Assembly (NCBI GenBank): GCA_963682135.1
Contig: OY821645.1
Coordinates: 736,001 to 800,000, forward strand
Length of the DNA stretch: 64,000 nt
Reading direction: 5' to 3'
Source: Methanothrix sp.
GTDB taxonomy: Archaea; Halobacteriota; Methanosarcinia; Methanotrichales; Methanotrichaceae
Shown here in pieces: positions 54,081 through 64,000 of this stretch. The position numbers were made by a program, and so were the translations under genes. Under the pieces are notes generated by a model. The model was given only the letters and a program-made list of their open reading frames with translations. It did not search any database and was not told where the DNA came from. Every line of letters begins with the position of its first letter. The first letter of the stretch is position 1.

Positions 54081-54938
54081 TTAGGTTGATGCTATATAGG
54101 CAACCATCTCTCCCAAGGCAGCATCACAGCTTTTTGCCATTGAGGCGATATAGTAATCCAGCCAGGACGTAAGGTCGGCATCAGCTCGCCCCTCGTAGTA
54201 GTCGATATTTTCATGCAGATTGAGAGCCCGGTAGTAGCTATCAAGATCTTCTGCGTACTGCTCCTCTGGGGTGAGGAAGCCGGCCAGACTGTAGCCGTCC
54301 CTTTGCAGAATGAAGTCGGCACACAGGCAGGCGGCTACGCCGTTGCCATTGTTGAAAGGATGAAGGGTGGCAAGCTGATAGTGAACAAGACCGGCGATGA
54401 CGGGGACTGCCAGTTCGCTGCTTCTGGCATCTTCCGTCCAGATCTCCAGAGACGCGATCAACTCAGGCAGATCCTCTGGCCGGGGAGGAAGATAGACAGC
54501 TTCCCCGATGAGAGAGAATTTTGCAGCGATTTTCCTTTTGCGCAGAGGAGTGGGACGGGAGGATTTGCCGGTCATGGCCAATCTATGAAAGCGACTGATA
54601 AGGGTCTCGGTGAGCGGCAGACTCATCTTGGACCATTCCTCTGACTTCTGGAGAGCTTTGCAGTAATTTCGCACCATTGCAACATCATTTTCCAAGCCTT
54701 TGATCTCAACAGTCTCATCGGCAATCACAGTAGATGCCTGTTCAATAGTGAGAGATCCGCCTCCAATCAAGGAGGAAGCGCGGGAAGCCAGCACATGGGC
54801 GCGATCATGTAGCATTGCATATCCTTGGAGCGGTAGGATAACGGTCTCCACCAAGATGCGCGCCATCTCAATGCGTGTCAGGTTGTGGGAGATGGCGGGA
54901 GTTAGGGTGAAACGCGGGGACCAAATGGGGATTGTCAT
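54081..54938 (-). CDS. Fic-domain protein with non-canonical motif
   Basis: HPFNNGNGVAAC in place of HPFxDGNGRxxR; YYRAL...ADLTSWLDY. Confidence 0.85.
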   Translation of the reverse strand: MTIPIWSPRFTLTPAISHNLTRIEMARILVETVILPLQGYAMLHDRAHVLASRASSLIGGGSLTIEQASTVIADETVEIKGLENDVAMVRNYCKALQKSEEWSKMSLPLTETLISRFHRLAMTGKSSRPTPLRKRKIAAKFSLIGEAVYLPPRPEDLPELIASLEIWTEDARSSELAVPVIAGLVHYQLATLHPFNNGNGVAACLCADFILQRDGYSLAGFLTPEEQYAEDLDSYYRALNLHENIDYYEGRADADLTSWLDYYIASMAKSCDAALGEMVAYIAST

Positions 54939-55119
54939 TTCGAATGCTCCTTATGCCTTGATTTTTGAAAGACAAATGTTTTAAAATAGATAAAGATATC
55001 TTTTGATTGATTTACAGCAAAATTTAAGGCATTTGTAGATTGCGAAGACATCTAGCGATGCGAGCGAAACGAAAGAGAAGAGCGGTCCTGCCGCCCACAG
55101 TCCTTGAGAAGCCACTAGG

Positions 55120-55803
55120 CTACAGCTCATCTAGAGATCGTTTGAACCAAATCGATGTAAGGCTTAAAGAACTAAAAAGAATGATTGCATTTGCTACGAC
55201 ATCAATCAAAACAATGATTGTAGGCAATGGGTAGAGTGGATTGGTAAAAATGATGGATCCGGTGAGTCCCGAAAACAGAAATGACCGGCTTATCCATTTA
55301 GAAAGCCTGTCTCCGGAAAAGAGCCTCGATGCAGAGATAAGAGACAGACACATAAATAAATAGCCAATACCTTCCAATGCCCCCGGAAAGGAATTGGGAT
55401 ACGGTTGAGCAAAAATCCATAAAGTCAGTCCGTCGGTGGAGTGACGAACGAGATTGTGCACGACAACAACTGCTTGAATGTAATAAAGGGCACTAATAAT
55501 AATAGCATATGCAATGGCAAATACGACCGCAAGCAAGCTCCATATTTTTTTCTCCTCTGAAGTAGATGCATGAAGACATACAATCATCGTCAAAAAGCAA
55601 ATTGTCAGCAAAAAGCAAGGTATTATCCAGGCAATGAATGGCTCAACTCTAAAATTGTCCACATAGGCTTGCATACCATGCCAGGGTGCATATAGTATCG
55701 GCTGATATAGTCCAAAAGCAATGGAAAACCATAATTCTGTTACGGCAGCTAAAACAGCTGACCAGAATCCAAGTTGTTGCACTATTTTATTATTTATTAT
55801 CAT
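55120..55803 (-). CDS. multi-pass membrane protein
   Basis: About six hydrophobic segments. Confidence 0.75.
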   Translation of the reverse strand: MIINNKIVQQLGFWSAVLAAVTELWFSIAFGLYQPILYAPWHGMQAYVDNFRVEPFIAWIIPCFLLTICFLTMIVCLHASTSEEKKIWSLLAVVFAIAYAIIISALYYIQAVVVVHNLVRHSTDGLTLWIFAQPYPNSFPGALEGIGYLFMCLSLISASRLFSGDRLSKWISRSFLFSGLTGSIIFTNPLYPLPTIIVLIDVVANAIILFSSLSLTSIWFKRSLDEL

Positions 55804-56002
55804 GGTGTAGAATCTGCGTTTACTCGTTAATAGAGTTGGCGCCAACTGCCCGGCAATAGAATGCAACGGCAATCTCTCTCATGACAAAAAGGTTTGCGGT
55901 GATCTCTTGCTGGATCTAGGAGTGCACGATCTCTGACCCATATATTTAAGCCTCGAAATGAATATCTCAATACGCAGATCAAGAGAATCAGGAGATAGAT
56001 GC

Positions 56003-56521
56003 ATGAAAAAATCCTCAATCGATAGGCCAATGGAAGACGGCAGTACGATGCAGTTGGAATTTAGGAAGGCTGTCAAGGAGGATGTTCCCAAACTGATCAC
56101 ATTCCTCAAGGAGACTATTATGGAGGTCTATGGTCAGATCTTGTCCAGGGAGATTTTGCAGCCCTGGGTCGAAGGTGACAGGCTTGGTAGCGAAGTCAAC
56201 CAGCTATTGCCAAATATGATCGTTGCAGAAAAAACGGGCGAGATTTTGGCAGTTGCCGCCAATCTTGACGAGAAGGTAGCTTTTCTTTGGGTCCATCCAG
56301 ACCACCATCGCAAAGGCATAGGAAGCGTTCTGCTGGATATTGTTGAGACGGAGATAGAGAAATCTGGATACGAGATTGCAAAGCTGGAATGTTTCAGCGA
56401 TAACGACCAGGCTATGGGATTTTACCTGGCCAACGGCTGGAAGCTCCTTTGCGAAGAGATGGACAAAGAGGCATGCGCCTTGAAGATGGTTATGGAAAAG
56501 CCACTGACGAAGAAAAGCTAG
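56003..56521 (+). CDS. GNAT acetyltransferase
   Basis: V.PDHHRKGIGS, N.QAMGFY..NGW. Confidence 0.9.
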   Translation: MKKSSIDRPMEDGSTMQLEFRKAVKEDVPKLITFLKETIMEVYGQILSREILQPWVEGDRLGSEVNQLLPNMIVAEKTGEILAVAANLDEKVAFLWVHPDHHRKGIGSVLLDIVETEIEKSGYEIAKLECFSDNDQAMGFYLANGWKLLCEEMDKEACALKMVMEKPLTKKS

Positions 56522-56601
56522 GTAATACCTCGATTCGGAAAATGGCGGGCAGGCAAGACGAAGCGAAACTTTGAAGTCATGTCAAAATATATGCGAAGCA
56601 A

Positions 56602-57453
56602 ATGAACCACAATAGTTCGCCGACAATCATGAAAAAAGTGGCAATTGCGAATGTTTGGTTGTGGTTATCTGTGTTCGTCTCAATTCTGGTAACAATAACC
56701 AGCTTATCAGGGATATTTCTTAAGAGAACATACTCCCGAGAGACTGAAGCATGGGCAGTTCAAGCCATCGGCCAGGATTATGCCAATCTGATAGTTGTTA
56801 TACTCTTACTGGTTAGCACTTACTATGTCTCGAAAAATTCACTGAGGGCATATCTTATCTGGTTAGGTGCTTATATTTATATTATCTATGCATTCGCTAT
56901 TTATGCTTTCGCAGTTCACTTTAACTTTCTTTTTTTAATATATACTATAATTTTAGGAGTGTCGTTTTACACTCTGGTTGGGGGATTGAGGGCGGTCGAT
57001 ACAAAAAATCTGTCAGCATCTTTTCTCACAAATACAAAGTCAAAGATAGTGAGCGCGCTGCTGATGATTATTGGAATTTCGTTTGGCTTATTATGGCTGA
57101 GCGAAATAGTCCCCAGTCTTCTATCAAACGAAATACCTCCCAGCCTCGTTGAAACCGGATTGGGGGTAAATCCGGTCCATGTATTGGATCTGGCCTTTGT
57201 ATTGCCCGGCATGATTATTACATCAGCATTGCTCTGGAAGAGAAATATGATGGGATTTCTCCTGGCTGTACCATTTATGGTCTTTTCAGTGACTATGGGT
57301 GCGGGAATAATTATCATGTTCGCCATTTCTGCCATAAAGGGTATGCCAAGCTCCTTGCCCGCAGGGATGATTATTGGTTTAATAATGCTATTGAGTGTGT
57401 ATTTTTCATATCTATTTTTAAGAGAAGTGAATGAATATGATTATGACTATTGA
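56602..57453 (+). CDS. multi-pass membrane protein
   Basis: QAIGQD, NPVHVLDL; many TM helices. Confidence 0.8.
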   Translation: MNHNSSPTIMKKVAIANVWLWLSVFVSILVTITSLSGIFLKRTYSRETEAWAVQAIGQDYANLIVVILLLVSTYYVSKNSLRAYLIWLGAYIYIIYAFAIYAFAVHFNFLFLIYTIILGVSFYTLVGGLRAVDTKNLSASFLTNTKSKIVSALLMIIGISFGLLWLSEIVPSLLSNEIPPSLVETGLGVNPVHVLDLAFVLPGMIITSALLWKRNMMGFLLAVPFMVFSVTMGAGIIIMFAISAIKGMPSSLPAGMIIGLIMLLSVYFSYLFLREVNEYDYDY

Positions 57454-58276
57454 AAAGTATCGTCATCCAATCCTCTTCTACGGATTGTCCACAGCAATTC
57501 CGTGGGCGTTTTGGTTCGCGGCTGCGTACTTGAGCCACATCACACCCATGAACCAGTTTTTGGCGACAGCGGTAGGCGTTCTGGGCGTTGTTGGGCTGTT
57601 TGGTCCTACTTTGATAGCATTCTGGATGATCTGGCCGGACGCTGACTTAAGGGACGATCTCAAGAGACGGTTGATCGGTCTCAAAGGCGTCAGGCCGATC
57701 TATCTCTTTCTTACCTGTTTCCTCATGCTTGCCAGCATTCTTATGGCACAAGGGATTTCCTTATTGTTCGGGTACAGCGCGGATCAGTTCAGTCTTTCGG
57801 GCATGTCGTCGTTCTCTGCCGGAATCTTCCCAGGGTGGTTCCTGCTCTTTCTCGCACCCCTGGTAGAAGAATTGGCGTGGCACTCCTATGGCACCGACTG
57901 TCTGCGACAACGGATGAACCTGCTCAAGGCTTCCCTGCTGTTCGGTGTGTTCTGGGCTCTTTGGCATCTGCCGCTATCCTTCATCAAGGATTACTACCAC
58001 AGCAACGTGGCTGAGATAGGGCTGCTGTACAGCCTCAATTTCGCGTTCAGCCTTATTCCCTATGTAATTCTTATGAACTGGCTGTACTACAAGACGCATC
58101 GCAGCATACTTGTTGCTATTGTCTTTCACATCACAGCAGGGTACTTCAATGAAGCATTCGCCACGCATCCGGATAGTAAGGTGATCCAGACCGGACTCTT
58201 GCTGCTGCTGGCGATCGTGGTGATCATCAAAGAAAAGGACTTATTCTTGCAGCGAGACTACCGGGAGGAGAAATAG
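57431..58276 (+). CDS. CPBP (CAAX/Abi) intramembrane metalloprotease
   Basis: EELAW..Y, WALWHLP, H...N-like motif. Confidence 0.92.
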   Translation: MNMIMTIEKYRHPILFYGLSTAIPWAFWFAAAYLSHITPMNQFLATAVGVLGVVGLFGPTLIAFWMIWPDADLRDDLKRRLIGLKGVRPIYLFLTCFLMLASILMAQGISLLFGYSADQFSLSGMSSFSAGIFPGWFLLFLAPLVEELAWHSYGTDCLRQRMNLLKASLLFGVFWALWHLPLSFIKDYYHSNVAEIGLLYSLNFAFSLIPYVILMNWLYYKTHRSILVAIVFHITAGYFNEAFATHPDSKVIQTGLLLLLAIVVIIKEKDLFLQRDYREEK

Positions 58277-58287
58277 AATCTGCGCAA

Positions 58288-58477
58288 TTTGCCTAAACCC
58301 ATACCCCACACCATTCTCTGTCGGCCTTCCCCTGTCCGTCTCTCTCCGGCGGAGGAAAGCATGCCACGAAATGTTCCGCCCGTCCAAGCTCGTGCCGGCT
58401 ACAGTCTCCACCTTCACCGGCCTGGGAAAGCCCGCTTGCTCCAAAAGCCGCAGGAGGTCGTGCTCAAGGCACCCGAT
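58288..58477 (-). pseudogene. internal fragment resembling type I-G Csb2 (Cas5/6) C-terminal region
   Basis: QIGCLEHDLLRLLEQAGFPRP...WHAFLRRR...GYGFR; recognised from memory of the family, no start and no G-rich tail. Confidence 0.5.
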
Positions 58478-58504
58478 CTGCAGGCAGCGTCACATCCACA
58501 ATCT
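58478..58504 (-). repeat. csx3 remnant F (27-nt 3' tail)
   Basis: CTGCAGGCAGCGTCACATCCACAATCT, identical to the 3' end of intact csx3. Confidence 0.9.
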
Positions 58505-58515
58505 AATACCTAAGG

Positions 58516-58740
58516 CTAGTCCGCTGAGAACCACTCCTCTCTGCTTATGCCTCCATCTCGTAATATTTTTACCAATAGGTCCAATCCAATCTCTTCGCCA
58601 TGGTGAGGATTGGGGATAATGATAGTATCGATTCCACGGACCATATATTGATGCCTCTTGCCTTGAAATGGTCCCACTGCCCCCAGTCTGATAAGTCGCT
58701 TTATCAACTCTCGTCTCGTCACAGGAGAGAGCTTATGCAA
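58516..58740 (-). CDS. hicA: HicA-family toxin
   Basis: ELIKRL..LG..GP.QGKRHQYM...IPNPH...LL..IL...GISREEW. Confidence 0.88.
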   Translation of the reverse strand: MHKLSPVTRRELIKRLIRLGAVGPFQGKRHQYMVRGIDTIIIPNPHHGEEIGLDLLVKILRDGGISREEWFSAD

Positions 58741-58990
58741 CCTGTATCGGCTCCTTAACGGATGTGGAGATGGTCAGACCACCCATAGGCGGTACGCTTT
58801 GCCCCCATTGAAGTTTGGCCACAATCCATTCCTCAATGACTTCTATCAGCTCTTTCCTGCATTCTTCAAAGGTCTTGCCTGTAGCCCAGACGCCCACGAG
58901 GCCGGGCACGTGAGCATAATACGGATCAGGGTTATCGATTATCTCGTATTCGGCCCTTTCAAGAGCTGCCTGGATGTATTCTGCGAACAT
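58733..58990 (-). CDS. hicB: HicB-family antitoxin
   Basis: YYAHVPGL.GVWATGKT.EEC..EL.EVIEEW. Confidence 0.9.
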   Translation of the reverse strand: MFAEYIQAALERAEYEIIDNPDPYYAHVPGLVGVWATGKTFEECRKELIEVIEEWIVAKLQWGQSVPPMGGLTISTSVKEPIQVA

Positions 58991-59024
58991 GCAATTTGTT
59001 TATAGGCTGCACAAGGAGAAAAAG

Positions 59025-59250
59025 ATAGCGGACAGGGATGTTCACATCGACCACCTTGCCCCGGCGAAGGGCTGTGGCTGGCCACCACTCCCGTCCCCAG
59101 GCGCGGATCGGCTACCCAGGCCTCAGCCCGGCGAGCCGTGCAGCTGTTCATCGCCGTAGCGCCCGATGGGAGCGCGGCCCTCCACTATGACGAGCGAGCC
59201 GCGGGGTATCTCGGGCAGCGCCCAAGTGGCAGAGGTAATGGAAAGAGATA
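59025..59250 (-). pseudogene. csx3: csx3 remnant E
   Basis: LPEIPRGSLVIVEGRAPIGRYG / ADPRLGTGVVASHS / KVVDVNIP in shifting frames. Confidence 0.88.
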
Positions 59251-59273
59251 TTAGAATCAATTTGAGATGGTTT

Positions 59274-59489
59274 CTAAGCTAGACTTGCTGCAAGGCTTCG
59301 CTTCAGTGGAACCGGTATAGCCCTGCCCATATCTCTTGCAGCTTCTAGCCAAAGCTGCATGGCTATTTTGACCTCCCGAAGGGCTCTCTCTTCAGTCTCG
59401 CCGAAGGCTGAACAGCCGGGAAGCTCCGGAACAATAGCGATAAATCCCTCATCGTCCTCACTATAAAAGATCTCAATTGCGTACATCAA
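59274..59489 (-). CDS. hicB: HicB-family antitoxin (short)
   Basis: EDDEGFIA.VPELPGCSAFGET.E.AL. Confidence 0.92.
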   Translation of the reverse strand: MMYAIEIFYSEDDEGFIAIVPELPGCSAFGETEERALREVKIAMQLWLEAARDMGRAIPVPLKRSLAASLA

Positions 59490-59731
59490 TCCTCTTGGAG
59501 GTTATATCTCTCAATTACTTTAATAAACTGCCGGACCTGATAAGCCTTTGCCCATCCACCTTCGTTTTGGAAGTTCAATATCTCCTGTATTCCTTCTCGA
59601 AAGTAGACTCGATGGCTCCCAGTCCCTTTCCTGGTCTGAAAACCCAAAGCCTCAGCTATTTTGCACAATCTTGCGAAACGGATTTTCTTGGGATTGGCTT
59701 TAATCTCTTCAAGCAATTCTTGTCTGTTCAT
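59486..59731 (-). CDS. hicA: HicA-family toxin
   Basis: NPKKIRF, GF.....GSHRVY, QNEGG.AKAYQVRQ; likely start MNRQ at 59731. Confidence 0.9.
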   Translation of the reverse strand: MNRQELLEEIKANPKKIRFARLCKIAEALGFQTRKGTGSHRVYFREGIQEILNFQNEGGWAKAYQVRQFIKVIERYNLQED

Positions 59732-59763
59732 TTTTTGCTTCGCATCACATATGGGCACGCACT

Positions 59764-60023
59764 CTAACGATCAACAGGGATTGTAACATCCACTACCTGG
59801 CCCACCTGCCACTCCTGGCTGTGGGTTGCGACAACCACAGCTCCGAGGCGCGGATCGGCTCCCCTAGCCGCAGCGGACGAGGCGTGGAGGCGGTGCAAGG
59901 CCGCGGTGCGGGAGCGCGGCCCTCCACGATGACGAGCGAGCCGCGGTGGATGTCGGGCAGCGCCCAAGGGGCGGGGGTGATAGGGGAGAGGGCGGCGAAA
60001 GGAGTAGATATTGGGCTGTTCAC
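59764..60023 (-). pseudogene. csx3: csx3 remnant D
   Basis: SPITP..LPDIHRGSLVIVEGRAP [frameshift] ALHRLHAS...DPRLGAVVVATHSQEWQVGQVVDV. Confidence 0.92.
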
Positions 60024-60193
60024 CAGTTTTTATAAATTCTTTAATATTCCCCCGTCGGGCCATAGCTGCCTGGCTCAGCCTCAAATCATCCCTGGCTCAT
60101 CTACTTCTCTGCAGGCAGCGTCACATCCACAATCTGGCCCACCTGCCACTCCCGGCTGTGGGTTGCCACCACCACCGCTCCCAGGCGCGGATC
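59977..60193. repeat. about 217-bp direct repeat of 61202..61417 (csx3 tail + TATA-containing spacer + csx3 head)
   Basis: Near-identical by eye, including GATATTGGGCTGTTCACCAGTTTTTATAAAT and GGCTCATCTACTTCTCTGCAGGCAGCGTCACATCC. Confidence 0.92.
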
Positions 60194-60343
60194 GACTGCC
60201 CTAGCCGCAGCGGGCGAGCCGTGCTAGCCGGGTGCAGGGCCGCGGTGCGGGGGCGCGGCCCTCCACGATCACGAGCGAGCCGCGGGGGATCCCCGGGAGC
60301 GGGGGCAGGGCTGCGACCCGGCAAGGAGACGGCGATGGGAAAA
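60101..60343 (-). pseudogene. csx3: csx3 remnant C
   Basis: PIAV / LPPLPGIPRGSLVIVEGRAP / DPRLGAVVVATHSREWQVGQIVDVTLPAEK* in shifting frames. Confidence 0.92.
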
Positions 60344-60370
60344 TGATGAGAGAGGTCAATTGAGAGAACT

Positions 60371-60442
60371 TCACGCTGCATCCTTTATCTTCAGCTCGAC
60401 CTCTCTGGCCGCAATGGGCTTTGCAGGAAGCTTTCCTTCAGG
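60371..60442 (-). pseudogene. 3' remnant of a second YgiT-type zinc-finger gene
   Basis: PEGKLPAKPIAAREVELKIKDAA* aligns with AGTLLAKPLAAGEVDL of the adjacent intact gene. Confidence 0.75.
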
Positions 60443-60462
60443 GAAGTCACATCACCGTCTTC

Positions 60463-60729
60463 TCAAACACTTGCTTGGCAAGCCGGAGCATTCAGATCAA
60501 CCTCTCCGGCAGCGAGCGGCTTGGCCAGAAGTGTTCCTGCATGCAACGCCTTGCGAACCTCGTCGATCTTCCTAGCGGTCTCTAACGAATAGTAGGCTTC
60601 GTCACAATTCTCGCAAACGAAAGCCGGAATGTTTTTGATTACTACTACCATATTATTTATCTTGGCTGTGATCTCCGTTGTACCTTCGTGAAGCTTGCCG
60701 CTGCAATACTGACATTCATCTGGAATCAT
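60463..60729 (-). CDS. YgiT/MqsA-type zinc-finger protein (putative antitoxin)
   Basis: CQYC...IKNIPAFVCENCDEAYY. Confidence 0.9.
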   Translation of the reverse strand: MIPDECQYCSGKLHEGTTEITAKINNMVVVIKNIPAFVCENCDEAYYSLETARKIDEVRKALHAGTLLAKPLAAGEVDLNAPACQASV

Positions 60730-61058
60730 TTTCGTATCCTCACTCTCCCTTCAATCCATTTGTCCTCTGCTGGCCTGTAGACTGTCACAATCTTTATGTG
60801 GTCTCTGCATACGGCAACGGCCACATGGCAAAGTTGCTCACTCATGTCATGTCCAAGCATCAGGGCTTCAGGGCATGGTTTTCGTTCTGGATGTCCTTCT
60901 ATTACGTCTCCATTCATTAATAATTTTATCACATCATCGGGTGATATATCCCTCTCGAACATCCTCTCGCCTGCATGGTTAGAAAATACAATCTTGCCGG
61001 TAGCTGCAAAAAGCCTTATCCTTGCGCACAGATTTAATGACTCCCCGTCTCCACTCAT
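60726..61058 (-). CDS. DUF4258 family protein (putative RelE-like toxin)
   Basis: FSNHAGERMFERDI, G.VIE, HV.V, IVTVYRP..KW. Confidence 0.9.
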   Translation of the reverse strand: MSGDGESLNLCARIRLFAATGKIVFSNHAGERMFERDISPDDVIKLLMNGDVIEGHPERKPCPEALMLGHDMSEQLCHVAVAVCRDHIKIVTVYRPAEDKWIEGRVRIRK

Positions 61059-61125
61059 TATTTCGCTACCTCATGGCAGATACTACTATCTCAACTTTTC
61101 TCCCGAGCTGTAATGGTCAGATCGA

Positions 61126-61248
61126 TCATATATAGAAGGCGACAGTCACAGCGGGCGAGCCGCGGGGGATTTCAGGGAGCGGGGGCAGCGGCTCGACGGG
61201 AGTGATGGGGGAGAGGGCGGCGAAAGGAGGAGATATTGGGCTGTTCAC
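61126..61248 (-). pseudogene. csx3: csx3 remnant B (internally deleted, 3'-truncated)
   Basis: SPITPVEPLPPLPEIPRGS fused to PAVTVAFY*. Confidence 0.85.
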
Positions 61249-61324
61249 CAGTTTTTATAAATTTGTCAATATCCACCAGTCGGGCCATAGCTACCTGGCT
61301 AAGCTCAAATCACCCCCGGCTCAT

Positions 61325-61606
61325 CTACTTCTCTGCAGGCAGCGTCACATCCACAATCTGGCCCACCTGCCACTCCTGGCTGTGGGTTGCGACAACCACA
61401 GCTCCGAGGCGCGGATCATAGAAGGCGATGGCGGCAGCAGGCGAGGCGTGCAGGCGGTGCAGGGCCATGCCGTAGCGCCAGATGGGAGCCCGTCCCTCCA
61501 CGATGACGAGCGAGCCGCGGGGGATCTCGGGGAGAGAGGGCAGGGGCTCGGAGGGGGTGATGGGTGAGGGGACGGCGATGGAATAGAGGACGGGGGCGGC
61601 GATCAT
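61325..61606 (-). CDS. csx3: CRISPR-associated ring nuclease Csx3/Crn3
   Basis: VIVEGRAPIWRYG..LH.LH...AFYDPRLGAVVVATH; ATGA-coupled to upstream CARF nuclease. Confidence 0.92.
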   Translation of the reverse strand: MIAAPVLYSIAVPSPITPSEPLPSLPEIPRGSLVIVEGRAPIWRYGMALHRLHASPAAAIAFYDPRLGAVVVATHSQEWQVGQIVDVTLPAEK

Positions 61607-62856
61607 CTTGACACCCTCCCACCCAACATGAATATTTCTGATAATTTCTTCACGATCTTTTGGTCGTTATTCAATTTCATCTCTGCGAGTTCCTTAATAT
61701 GCATGCTTGGGATTATAGTGCAATTGTAGAGTTCCGCCCTATCTGAAATAGAATCTTTAATATCATTGCCTTTGAGTACGTTTGGAGAGGTTGTTGCAAG
61801 ATAGGATTTTATGTTGAGTGCACCTAATTGTCTTTTTACAGCTTCCACCTTATAGAGTGTTTCATTGCCTGAAGGATCATGTTTTTGGTCACCGGTCTTG
61901 CATTCAATAAAGCGCAGTGATTGGTTATGCATAAATGCAATGTCCCAGTCGTTCTTCACCTCTTTTTTTGACGCCTTAAAATCCAATTTTTTTCTTGGAT
62001 GAATGCCCAATCGAACGTCAGTAATTCCCAAATCAGGTGAATAATCTGTAAGAATTCCCCAGATAAATTCTTCCAACCAGCCTCCGGTTAAGAATTGCAC
62101 AGCATGACGCTTTAGAAGTCCATTAAGGAGTCCCTCATTATCATTAAGGCTAAATAAACTTGAAATCAGATCTCTAATAATTTCATCTTTTATTTCTAGG
62201 TTGACTAAAGTAATGCCCTTTTCTCTTGCCTTGGATCTGGCTTTCTCTAAGTTATCTCCATAGACCTCATTGAACCTATTATCCAAATCTTTCATTATCT
62301 TATGAGCAATATTAATATTTGCAGAGAGATGGACTGATAAATCAAGCAATTTTCTAGCACGCTCTTCACCTTCCTGGATAACATCCTCTTTCTTGAGATA
62401 GTCAAAGCCGTATCCTGCAAGGAATTCTTTAACTTTCAATTCATATTTCAACTCCATAAGTGAGCCGTCAGAGAAGTCAATAGCCTTTTTTTGAGCAATA
62501 ATCGGAACATAGAGTATTTTTGCATTTCTTCCTTTGAAGAATTCATATGCTGCTATAGACATTGGTTTGGTGCCGCCTGTAATATTAATAGTCCATTCTG
62601 CATCTGGATGTTTTGAAAGAAGCGTCCCAAGCAATTTCTTTGTAGCTTCGATGGAATTCTCTTCTTTAAGCGATTTAATTCTGCAAATCGGCTTCTTTGA
62701 ATGTCCCATTCTCAATGCCCTTATTAAGTTCGAAGCCCCTCTCTTGACTTTCATTCCTGGTGTTTCAAGCAAAATAAGAAGGTCAGGCTCAATTGTATGA
62801 ACCGTTAATAGGTTTGGAACATGCTGATCGCTTATTAGGCACACCATGACCTTCAT
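61603..62856 (-). CDS. CARF + PD-(D/E)XK nuclease effector (Can2/Card1, DUF1887)
   Basis: LISDQHVPN, NITGGTKPMS, GGWLEE, NDWD...FIECK. Confidence 0.9.
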   Translation of the reverse strand: MKVMVCLISDQHVPNLLTVHTIEPDLLILLETPGMKVKRGASNLIRALRMGHSKKPICRIKSLKEENSIEATKKLLGTLLSKHPDAEWTINITGGTKPMSIAAYEFFKGRNAKILYVPIIAQKKAIDFSDGSLMELKYELKVKEFLAGYGFDYLKKEDVIQEGEERARKLLDLSVHLSANINIAHKIMKDLDNRFNEVYGDNLEKARSKAREKGITLVNLEIKDEIIRDLISSLFSLNDNEGLLNGLLKRHAVQFLTGGWLEEFIWGILTDYSPDLGITDVRLGIHPRKKLDFKASKKEVKNDWDIAFMHNQSLRFIECKTGDQKHDPSGNETLYKVEAVKRQLGALNIKSYLATTSPNVLKGNDIKDSISDRAELYNCTIIPSMHIKELAEMKLNNDQKIVKKLSEIFMLGGRVSR

Positions 62857-64000
62857 CTTCTTCCTCTCCCGTCTCTTGGCTTGTGGCTAGTCTCTTTCTT
62901 TGCGCCAATGGCAGCAAAATTATATATGCCCTCCTTTTCCATGACTCCGTTTATCTCCAGCTTTGTCTTTTGGTTGATTTCAACAGATGGCGGTGTTCCG
63001 AGCACTACAAGACCACCAAATCCATCATCTGCCATGAAATAGGATGCATTTCTCTTCTCTTTCGGATCGGGAACTTTTGTGACTTCTATGGTATCGCCTT
63101 TCTTATGCCTCATCATTCGGATTGGCTGTGGCCGGTTCTGTGGATGTGGCTTATCCATGATTGAAGACTCAGCAGCCGAATCCTTGGCCTCTATTGACCT
63201 TCTGCCCGTTTGATCAGAACCTACAGGAATTAACCGTCCATAGCCTGCGTTTGTCTTGCCACCAATGCCCCATTCCTGTAGCGCATCAGAGAGCAGCTCG
63301 AAGACCTTCGTAGCCCAATCATCGCCAATTGGCCCTGAAACGTCGCAAGATACTGCAACCTGGAAGGTTCCCACGATTGATAGAAAAGTTACTGGATTTG
63401 GATCATCAAAGTCCGTCGGCGCAATATTGCCCGTCTCATCAGAGTAGTAATCGCCATGATGCGGTGTCATCACATCAAGCTGAAGCGATCCTTCAAGGCT
63501 ATCGGGAGTGATCCAGGCATCATGGAAGATGATATGCCCTGAGTCCTCGGTCGTTCCGAAGATGGCCTTATGGTATTCACCGCTCAGCTTGAATTTCTCA
63601 TCAGCCGCCCCCCATGCCTGATCACAATAGTGAGCTGCAAGGCCCTTCAGAGCTGAGCCTGGAATCAATGGGGTTCCATAGGTATGGTTCAGGGTAAGCC
63701 CGGTTTCAAGGACATTTTCTCCGCCAAGGCCGATGATCATTCGACCATCTGTGCGATAGAATCCTTTGGACTTCAAATTCCTGAGCGCGTACTCTTGCCT
63801 TTGATAAGCCGCTTCGTAGGTCTCTCTGGACTGAACAAGCGATTGGCGCATCGCCTCAAACAGCTCTCTGCGGGATTGAGGATGGTTTTTCTTGTCTTTT
63901 ACAGCTACGCGGAGAAACCTGTCTCTCAAAAGTCCCGCATTATCGCCATTTTTGTCGAAATCCCACCATGCTGAAATAGCTGATCTGCAAGCTTCGGCCA
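62853..64000 (-). CDS. cmr6: type III-B CRISPR RAMP Cmr6 with C-terminal extension (5' end at window edge)
   Basis: NAGLL.DRF, IGLG..NVLETG, P.IPGSALKG, DVMTPH, DPNPV.FL, GIGGKTNAGYG; frame open to 64000. Confidence 0.95.
   Translation of the reverse strand, partial: AEACRSAISAWWDFDKNGDNAGLLRDRFLRVAVKDKKNHPQSRRELFEAMRQSLVQSRETYEAAYQRQEYALRNLKSKGFYRTDGRMIIGLGGENVLETGLTLNHTYGTPLIPGSALKGLAAHYCDQAWGAADEKFKLSGEYHKAIFGTTEDSGHIIFHDAWITPDSLEGSLQLDVMTPHHGDYYSDETGNIAPTDFDDPNPVTFLSIVGTFQVAVSCDVSGPIGDDWATKVFELLSDALQEWGIGGKTNAGYGRLIPVGSDQTGRRSIEAKDSAAESSIMDKPHPQNRPQPIRMMRHKKGDTIEVTKVPDPKEKRNASYFMADDGFGGLVVLGTPPSVEINQKTKLEINGVMEKEGIYNFAAIGAKKETSHKPRDGRGRR

Follow-up and report, generated by a model that had tools for sequence, protein, structure and literature searches.

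How does one short gene come to be followed by a row of its own relics, with small pairs of genes lodged between them? The question is raised by the genome of a Methanothrix archaeon (GCA_963682135.1, here G000), a single contig of 3.04 Mb that is 99.87% complete, and more precisely by its bases 736001-800000, the 64,000-nt stretch that was analysed as a whole and is called the window hereafter. In the window, the tail of a type III-B CRISPR-Cas operon (cmr1-cmr6, card1, csx3, recognized by profile matches) carries an intact csx3 gene, copy A, and further copies designated B to F. On the minus strand the order is A, spacer X1, B, a DUF4258-YgiT pair, C, spacer X2, D, hicA-hicB and E, after which come hicB-hicA, the 28-nt copy F and a csb2-like fragment. 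The gene pairs are putative toxin-antitoxin (TA) modules. We consider it likely that the region is an integrase-free cassette array formed by recombination at csx3.

Origin of the broken csx3 copies

The similarity of copies C, D and E to copy A is beyond chance (E values from 5e-106 to 1e-19), and Tandem Repeats Finder reports nothing in the array region. A preliminary description had drawn attention to copies that differ at synonymous sites and share inactivating lesions, and all the strings that it quoted for A, C, D and E were found letter for letter, on the minus strand, in the copies concerned. The VIVEGRAP block is located at 61484-61507 in the intact copy A, at 60249-60272 in C, at 59910-59933 in D and at 59168-59191 in E, and each version is single in the window. 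The lesion that replaces the IWRYGM codons is found at 60238-60251 in C and 59899-59912 in D and at no other site of the window. The lesion that replaces IAFY is found at 60184-60211 in C and 59847-59874 in D, with a related variant in E, and a 16-mer is common to D (59953-59968) and E (59211-59226). The synonymous bias among the copies is real. With lesion columns excluded, the proportions of synonymous and non-synonymous differences (pS and pN) are 0.265 and 0.069 between A and C, 0.277 and 0.121 between A and D, and 0.55 and 0.168 between A and E.

A comparable bias is found between genomes. In a first set of 24 intact and 87 non-intact csx3 copies, 77 of the latter carrying an indel or a stop codon, the ratio of non-synonymous to synonymous divergence (dN/dS) takes a value of 0.087 for comparisons among intact genes and of 0.258 for those among broken copies. 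Variants of broken copies that are also seen in intact alleles are mostly located at codon position 3 (697 of 896 observations), whereas those unique to one genome comprise 9 synonymous and 72 non-synonymous changes, a count in which novelty means absence from intact alleles and which therefore depletes synonymous changes by construction. This split indicates two layers, alleles inherited from functional genes and, on top of them, later drift. The repeats thus come from different once-functional alleles, as had been proposed.

The lesions themselves have a wide distribution. The full set comprises 168 csx3 copies from 55 genomes, 35 of them intact and 133 not. Eight copies from 6 genomes carry the IWRYGM lesion of C and D, 18 copies from 11 genomes a member of the IAFY family, 9 copies from 7 genomes a +2 lesion of C and 3 copies from 2 genomes the motif common to D and E; two further lesions, not present in the window, were counted in 15 and in 8 genomes. 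The 35 intact copies are free of all of these, and one of them is matched by another, looser pattern. Between copies that share a lesion, the difference at formerly non-synonymous sites is 0.12-0.21, to be compared with 0.36-0.55 at synonymous sites of the purA genes of their hosts, and such copies lie below the host purA value in 396 of 406 pairs (which are not independent); these copies look younger than their hosts. The lesions are common by descent across species, which agrees with the earlier proposal that copies were propagated after losing coding capacity.

Simple descent from the resident csx3 is rejected. Indeed, an approximately unbiased (AU) test excludes A, C, D and E as one clade (p=0.02; fast search on 79 copies and 153 columns, lesion sites being removed), and the dN/dS between broken copies departs widely from the neutral value. 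In the tree, two copies of genome G034 are the closest to D and E, and A is the closest to C. The copies also bear traces of recombination. A four-combination pattern is found in 14 of the 22 pairs of lesions from different regions. Copy D consists of a 5' lesion like that of E and G034, middle lesions like those of C, a run of 60 nt identical to A (59797-59856 = 61358-61417) and a G034-like 3' end. Another run, of 59 nt and spanning the stop codon, is identical between C and A.

Two further observations concern the lesions and ends of the copies. Lone csx3 3' fragments with an identical start (model position 187) are present at three loci (L105, L109 and L111), beside Mrr-type nuclease or PIN genes. 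An origin of the lesions in short patches, like those of SPDIR (short-patch double illegitimate recombination), is a lead only.

Distribution and cargo of csx3 arrays

The preliminary inference was largely right; its view did not extend to the TA cargo, to the spread of the arrays through the family or to a similar footprint at many other genes of G000. Matches to csx3 DNA occur in 40 of the 59 genomes of the genus, many of them multiple, and Csx3 protein matches in 58 of the 105 genomes of the order. Loci were picked by hand around most, not all, of these matches (80 regions, 9 short loci and the window) and yielded 49 arrays of at least two copies in 36 genomes. Except for copy F, the copies extend over about 40-280 nt.

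TA genes dominate the cargo. Neighbouring copies delimit 78 intervals, of which 75, all shorter than 2.5 kb, were counted and 3, with a gap below 30 or above 2500 nt, were left out. TA genes occupy 54 of the 75; 14 are both short and empty, 4 contain other labelled genes (one label being probably spurious) and 3 are unlabelled. The TA genes have the orientation of csx3 in 51 of the 54 intervals. Labels were transferred, through BLASTP matches, from references annotated with Pfam. HicA/HicB pairs are found in both orders, and the other families are DUF4258-YgiT, PemK with a small partner, MNT with HepT or HEPN, HEPN with an unknown partner, and AbrB-PIN. We take DUF4258-YgiT to be a putative TA pair, in line with weak MqsA matches. 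An IS110 gene is located inside one longer interval of L040.

An intact copy comes first in 13 of the 16 arrays that possess one, and the other 33 of the 49 arrays have none. Sites with a single csx3, organized as card1-csx3-(CARF or SAVED)-cas1, were found in L081, L091 and L093, which belong to other species or genera and not to conspecific strains; this organization is likely the ancestral state. In two filled sites (L044 and L113), the tail gene encoding CARF or SAVED is still carried by the last relic. The 5' ends of relics are scattered across positions 1-229. In 29 arrays that lack an intact copy, truncation of the first copy affects the 5' end in 16 cases and the 3' end in 4, and truncation of the last copy affects the 3' end in 12 and the 5' end in 10; L073 carries complementary pieces (229-281, then 2-227). 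The idea of permutation through a circle, to which this pattern leads, is suggestive only. Outside the family, PF09620 matches were obtained in 17 of 384 genomes of the phylum, none of them twice on a contig, with a protein hidden Markov model that would miss decayed copies.

Some arrays show other arrangements. Effector genes are placed like cassettes between csx3 copies in L053 (card1) and L035 (a TIGR02710-like CARF gene). A family A DNA polymerase gene (3'-5' exonuclease and PolA domains; 587-628 aa or broken) adjoins csx3 arrays or cas genes in L040, L061, L073, L101, L106 and L110. In L077, from another genus (G074), csx3 and some of the TA cassettes between its copies have opposite orientations. 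In G000 itself, a lone csx3 5' fragment lies at 568335-568429, about 230 kb from the array.

Probable movement of cassettes between species

Among the genes compared, csx3, a short gene of 70% G+C, is the most conserved stretch. In many genomes of the genus, the best copies are 83-87% identical to its DNA, whereas identity in the fetched loci does not exceed 71% for card1 and 72% for cmr6. Furthermore, the synonymous divergence of intact csx3 genes shows no correlation with that of purA (rho 0.10, p 0.45, 65 pairs).

The three cassettes of the window have different relatives. The genes of cassette 1 share only 60-65% identity with homologues in other csx3 arrays. The hicB gene of cassette 3 is 92.6-96.5% identical to those of pairs at csx3 loci of six other genomes. 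For hicA and hicB of cassette 2, identity reaches 98.5 and 98.1% with G034 (purA 92%) and 85.8 and 86.9% with G025 (purA 93%). The tract common to G000 and G034, which includes cassette 2, has both ends inside the flanking csx3 copies, and the lesions differ beyond these ends. A tract of 1048 nt shared by G033 and G017 also ends within csx3 on both sides, at other positions.

Data from runs X8 and X11 (studies P4 and P5) include contigs with cassette 2 at about 93-96% identity, in which the E side bears another lesion and the D side is of the intact type. As these are mixed samples, the contigs represent alternative alleles, possibly from other organisms, and not excision events in the strain of the window. 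X8 and X11 lack cover over cassette 1 and X7 lacks cover over most of card1, holes that prove nothing.

TA loci and direct repeats elsewhere in the genome

In G000, 14 of 32 loci with TA homologues, two of which are the csx3 array, lie between local direct repeats (circular-shift mean 1.56, p 2e-4). Several of these repeats are duplicated gene ends, for example at 536-537 kb, where a duplicated 3' end surrounds a PemK pair, and at 1.58 Mb, where the duplicated 5' end of a gene that is presumably moeA-like surrounds a PemK gene.

Other TA loci in clusters of local direct repeats, which are often duplicated gene ends, are situated at 159983-161632, 536001-540155, 591662-597079, 686126-687720, 1210732-1214504, 1227664-1232375, 1436084-1439708, 1581441-1583863, 1931164-1932321, 2476607-2484962 and 2905830-2910223. 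At some of them, identity between the repeats drops outward from 100% at one end. Three (591662-597079, 686126-687720 and 1436084-1439708) contain several G+C-rich repeats of about 100-480 nt, similar in appearance between loci, that separate small cassettes. The locus 2476607-2484962, with about seven copies of a 120-190-nt unit spaced by about 1 kb and an AbrB-PIN pair and small open reading frames (ORFs) between them, is a second cassette array with a different anchor.

Proposed mechanism

As csx3 varies far less across the genus than the adjacent genes do, it would offer a natural anchor for the DNA of relatives. A TA pair may first enter beside csx3 with a long duplication of its target, either by homology at one end and an illegitimate joint at the other or through a circle that integrates by a single crossover. 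Once two copies are present, homologous recombination between any of them would carry a csx3-TA-csx3 unit across species, a step whose footprints are visible in the tracts and mosaics described above. Crossovers at scattered points in or near the copies would bring old lesions and synonymous alleles into new, mosaic combinations, and relics would be refreshed by short tracts converted from the intact csx3. As one coding copy, usually the first, is probably enough, the remaining copies would decay. Units between direct repeats should loop out unless their loss is lethal, so that addictive TA pairs would be those that remain. The relics would endure as arms for the travel of cassettes and not for any product.

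Several points weigh against the interpretation as a recombination-built cassette array. The TA status of all pairs is putative, being predicted from sequence, and one RHH gene and the genes paired with PemK and HEPN owe their TA label to position or a weak match. A pairwise homoplasy index (PHI)-type test is not significant for intact copies (p 0.95), non-intact copies (p 0.10) or all copies (p 0.18). The mosaicism announced by the preliminary description is supported by the combinations of lesions and the AU test and finds no support in this one. About one-third of the relics begin at most 10 nt from the start codon, a sharper clustering than random illegitimate joints predict. No age gradient, such as strict displacement by front loading would produce, was detected along arrays (24 versus 18, p 0.44). 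Many high-identity tracts stop at a cassette edge or within a TA gene and not in csx3, which implies that TA genes and leaders also act as anchors. Relatives are mostly drafts, and with 6% contamination in G034, its purA may not match the contig that bears the cassette. Finally, TA loci and repeats may merely be co-located in variable islands.

Alternative explanations

The rival that survives best is domestication. It holds that the relics are selected as a recombination repeat that allows the type III-B operon to swap RNase-type TA modules and CARF/SAVED effectors, and that the extra copies are selected to be broken, since surplus ring nuclease would destroy cyclic tetra-adenylate (cA4) and mute Card1. 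The cargo is indeed strongly TA-biased and mostly of RNase-type families (HicA, PemK, HEPN/HepT, PIN), CARF, Card1 and SAVED effectors also occur between or just behind copies (L035, L053, L044, L113), lesions hit or flank conserved Csx3 motifs, and indels or stops affect almost all non-intact copies of the first set at low pN. However, two intact copies coexist in L042 and L050, an intact csx3 follows a TA gene in L042, L049, L053, L087 and L094, two-thirds of the arrays have no intact copy, and many are located away from cas genes. The ends of unrelated G000 genes are also duplicated and indel-rich, and a similar footprint of TA genes and direct repeats is found genome-wide. We therefore regard domestication at this operon as unlikely. 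Its family-wide version, in which a genus-wide pool of dead alleles, gene-converted and selected to stay dead, would have turned csx3 into a non-coding repeat, is doubtful to much the same degree. The same low credence goes to the associated picture of an integrase-free integron that would load and swap RNase TA modules and cyclic oligoadenylate (cOA) effectors at type III-B tails and elsewhere. That the repeat persists as DNA rather than as a gene, as previously suggested, holds as a description; selection on this DNA as a functional element is hypothetical, and the DNA is not a folded site.

Local duplication with neutral decay would require that each genome duplicated its own csx3, that TA genes were inserted by chance and that lesions recurred at template-switch hot spots in G+C-rich DNA. 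That C is closest to the resident copy A, that A-X-B resembles C-X-D, that several lesions improve a local hairpin and that the PHI test is negative all fit this scenario. It is hard to reconcile with the nearness of D and E to G034 copies and the rejection of a single clade, with a dN/dS of 0.26 between broken copies, and with the tract shared with G034, whose ends inside the copies weaken it further. Moreover, the lesion cores do not fit the reverse-complemented intact consensus better than shuffled sequences do (p 0.20-0.86), which makes independent templated recurrence unlikely. Altogether, this explanation is quite improbable. A local template-switch origin of the lesions was thus not above chance, and the search for exact donors of seven lesion motifs elsewhere in G000 gave none that was repeated, with at most one outside exact match each.

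A site-specific, integron-like system, in which relics would be attC-like or dif-like recombinase sites served in trans, has very little probability. One small co-oriented cassette per repeat and TA cargo do recall integron arrays (PMC9668308), and 5' ends cluster near the start codon. However, lesion-bearing copies fold like their shuffles (mean z -0.05 to 0.01, n=32), no RYYYAAC...GTTRRRY box pair is present in 58300-61700, the nearest tyrosine-recombinase match lies about 115 kb away, with four PF00589 matches elsewhere in G000, tract ends are scattered, and an Rfam scan of the window gave no match. A structured DNA site or RNA was examined more broadly and rejected: 73 copies folded as DNA and as RNA, on both strands, showed no excess over shuffles. 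One of the four comparisons gave p 0.02, driven by intact copies that fold worse than their own shuffles.

Assembly chimeras as the source of apparent mosaics are scarcely credible: most relatives are fragmented metagenome-derived genomes, some with 4-6% contamination, but G000 is a nearly complete single contig, run X5 covers all 30 bins with 38 of 41 contigs at 99% or more, arrays also occur in the single-species, complete-looking genomes G001 and G012, and multi-base lesions recur in contigs from other studies.

Features of the locus

The csx3 array and the genes that precede it are detailed in Table 1. Copy A retains the equivalents of residues G45/R46/I49, H57, H60, D69, R71 and H80 of Archaeoglobus fulgidus Csx3 (alignment to 3WZI/6VJG), whose roles in cA4 cleavage and binding are given in PMC7371418. 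Copy A thus corresponds to a csx3 gene with the residues reported as necessary for cA4 cleavage and is predicted to encode a ring nuclease. The TATA-like motif of spacer X1 is a candidate promoter element.

Table 1. Features of the csx3 array and of the adjacent operon end in the window (positions of the window)
Feature	Position	Strand	Description	Basis
cmr6	62853..63929	-	near the end of the cmr1-cmr2(cas10)-cmr3-cmr4-cmr5-cmr6 type III-B operon, which runs past the window	TIGR01898 over cut-off
card1-type effector gene	61603..62856	-	CARF + nuclease	PF23400 + PF09002
Copy A	61325..61606	-	intact csx3/crn3 ring-nuclease gene (predicted), 93 aa	PF09620, TIGR02579 over cut-off
Spacer X1	61239..61324	-	TATA-like TTTATAAA at 61254-61261	sequence comparison
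Copy B	61132..61238	-	csx3 5' part (model positions 15-97) fused to a short AFY-region piece	repeat families D4, D8
Cassette 1	60463..61058	-	putative TA pair: DUF4258 gene (60726-61058) and YgiT-type zinc-finger gene (60463-60729)	PF14076, TIGR03831
Copy C	60102..60361	-	broken full-length csx3, four block lesions, 3' end = A	alignment
Spacer X2	60016..60101	-	second allele of X1, TTTATAAA at 60029-60036	repeat families D1, D5
Copy D	59765..60015	-	broken csx3, four-part mosaic	alignment, lesions, tree
Cassette 2	59274..59758	-	hicA (59486-59758) and hicB (59274-59489)	Pfam
Tract common with G034	59238..59857 (approximate, converted from model positions)	-	620 nt, 96.3% identity, from csx3 position ~182 in D to ~49 in E	
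Copy E	59033..59263	-	most diverged broken csx3, tree neighbour = G034 copy	alignment, tree
Cassette 3	58516..58990	-	hicB (58733-58990) and hicA (58516-58740)	Pfam
Copy F	58477..58504	-	28 nt = 3' end of A and C	repeat family D6
csb2-like fragment	58270..58476	-	type I-G, joined to F, end of the array	71% match to G000:77333-77500, inside a csb2 ORF

Between the array and core genes, the window harbours accessory-looking genes at 54081-58276 (Fic, membrane proteins, GNAT, CAAX protease), two of which also lie behind the csx3 array of G036 (L064). No CRISPR array is present beside the cmr operon of G000. A cas4/cas1 fusion, cas2, a partial csb2 and CRISPR repeats are grouped at 69774-77616 of the contig, about 720 kb from this operon.

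Significance

The csx3 arrays provide a clear and datable record of addictive genes spreading through an archaeal family without a mobility enzyme, and their lesions serve as markers of pseudogenes that cross species borders. Prokaryotic pseudogenes are usually regarded as short-lived; the csx3 relics, unlike these, last and spread as recombination arms. The closeness of TA genes to type III CRISPR modules, reported and unexplained according to PMC6546367, may have a mechanical cause, a common anchor, and not a functional one. Should the footprint prove as general as suggested by the scan of G000, duplicated gene ends would mark the main route of gene gain in these methanogens.

Comparison with known systems

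Insertion with long target duplication has been described for restriction-modification (RM) systems (Furuta, Abe and Kobayashi 2010, PMC2853133). As there, the csx3 arrays involve two-gene modules in inserts below 20 kb, no mobility gene or nearby recombinase, and long direct repeats (>30 bp) that vary in length and in many cases include a start or stop codon; the target gene is left intact and genomes with an empty, single-copy target exist. They differ in their cargo, TA and not RM, whose addictiveness is putative here, and in their archaeal host, as that survey states that no archaeal RM system passed its screen. Furthermore, the events are stacked into arrays and the target is a whole short gene, whose copies resemble one another at 74-85%, derive from different alleles and bear lesions found across species.

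For the displacement arrays of Rhs, contact-dependent inhibition (CDI) and type VI secretion system (T6SS) effector-immunity genes, homology-facilitated illegitimate recombination together with homologous recombination has been proposed (Kirchberger et al. 2017, PMC5361080). The csx3 arrays share with them a conserved anchor for incoming modules, an intact gene in first position, orphan pieces of the anchor before downstream modules and integrase-free movement of finished arrays. Unlike in these systems, the anchor is a CRISPR ring-nuclease gene located outside the toxin and not part of a polymorphic toxin, the cargo consists of self-contained putative type II TA pairs, relics are often full length, and no age gradient is seen.

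Integron cassette arrays and clusters of attC sites lacking integron-integrases (CALINs), archaeal ones included (Ghaly et al. 2022, PMC9668308), have the same alternation of repeats and cassettes, with small co-oriented genes and TA cargo that possibly stabilizes the array. The csx3 arrays are distinguished from them by the lack of attC boxes, of a folding signal and of an adjacent intI, by scattered crossovers and by a repeat that is a decayed protein-coding gene.

As to Crn3/Csx3 itself (Athukoralage et al. 2020, PMC7371418), copy A passes the family cut-offs, retains the predicted catalytic and binding residues and lies behind a cA4-type CARF effector gene in a type III-B operon, whereas copies B-F cannot code for Csx3. 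TA pairs are absent from the type III accessory clusters of PMC6546367, which cites previous reports of TA pairs bordering CRISPR-Cas modules. A search of the open full-text literature, whose scope excludes most subscription journals and supplements, found no description of csx3-bracketed TA arrays. What appears new is thus an archaeal version of a known integrase-free insertion, with whole-gene relics whose lesions cross species and with a near-exclusive TA cargo.

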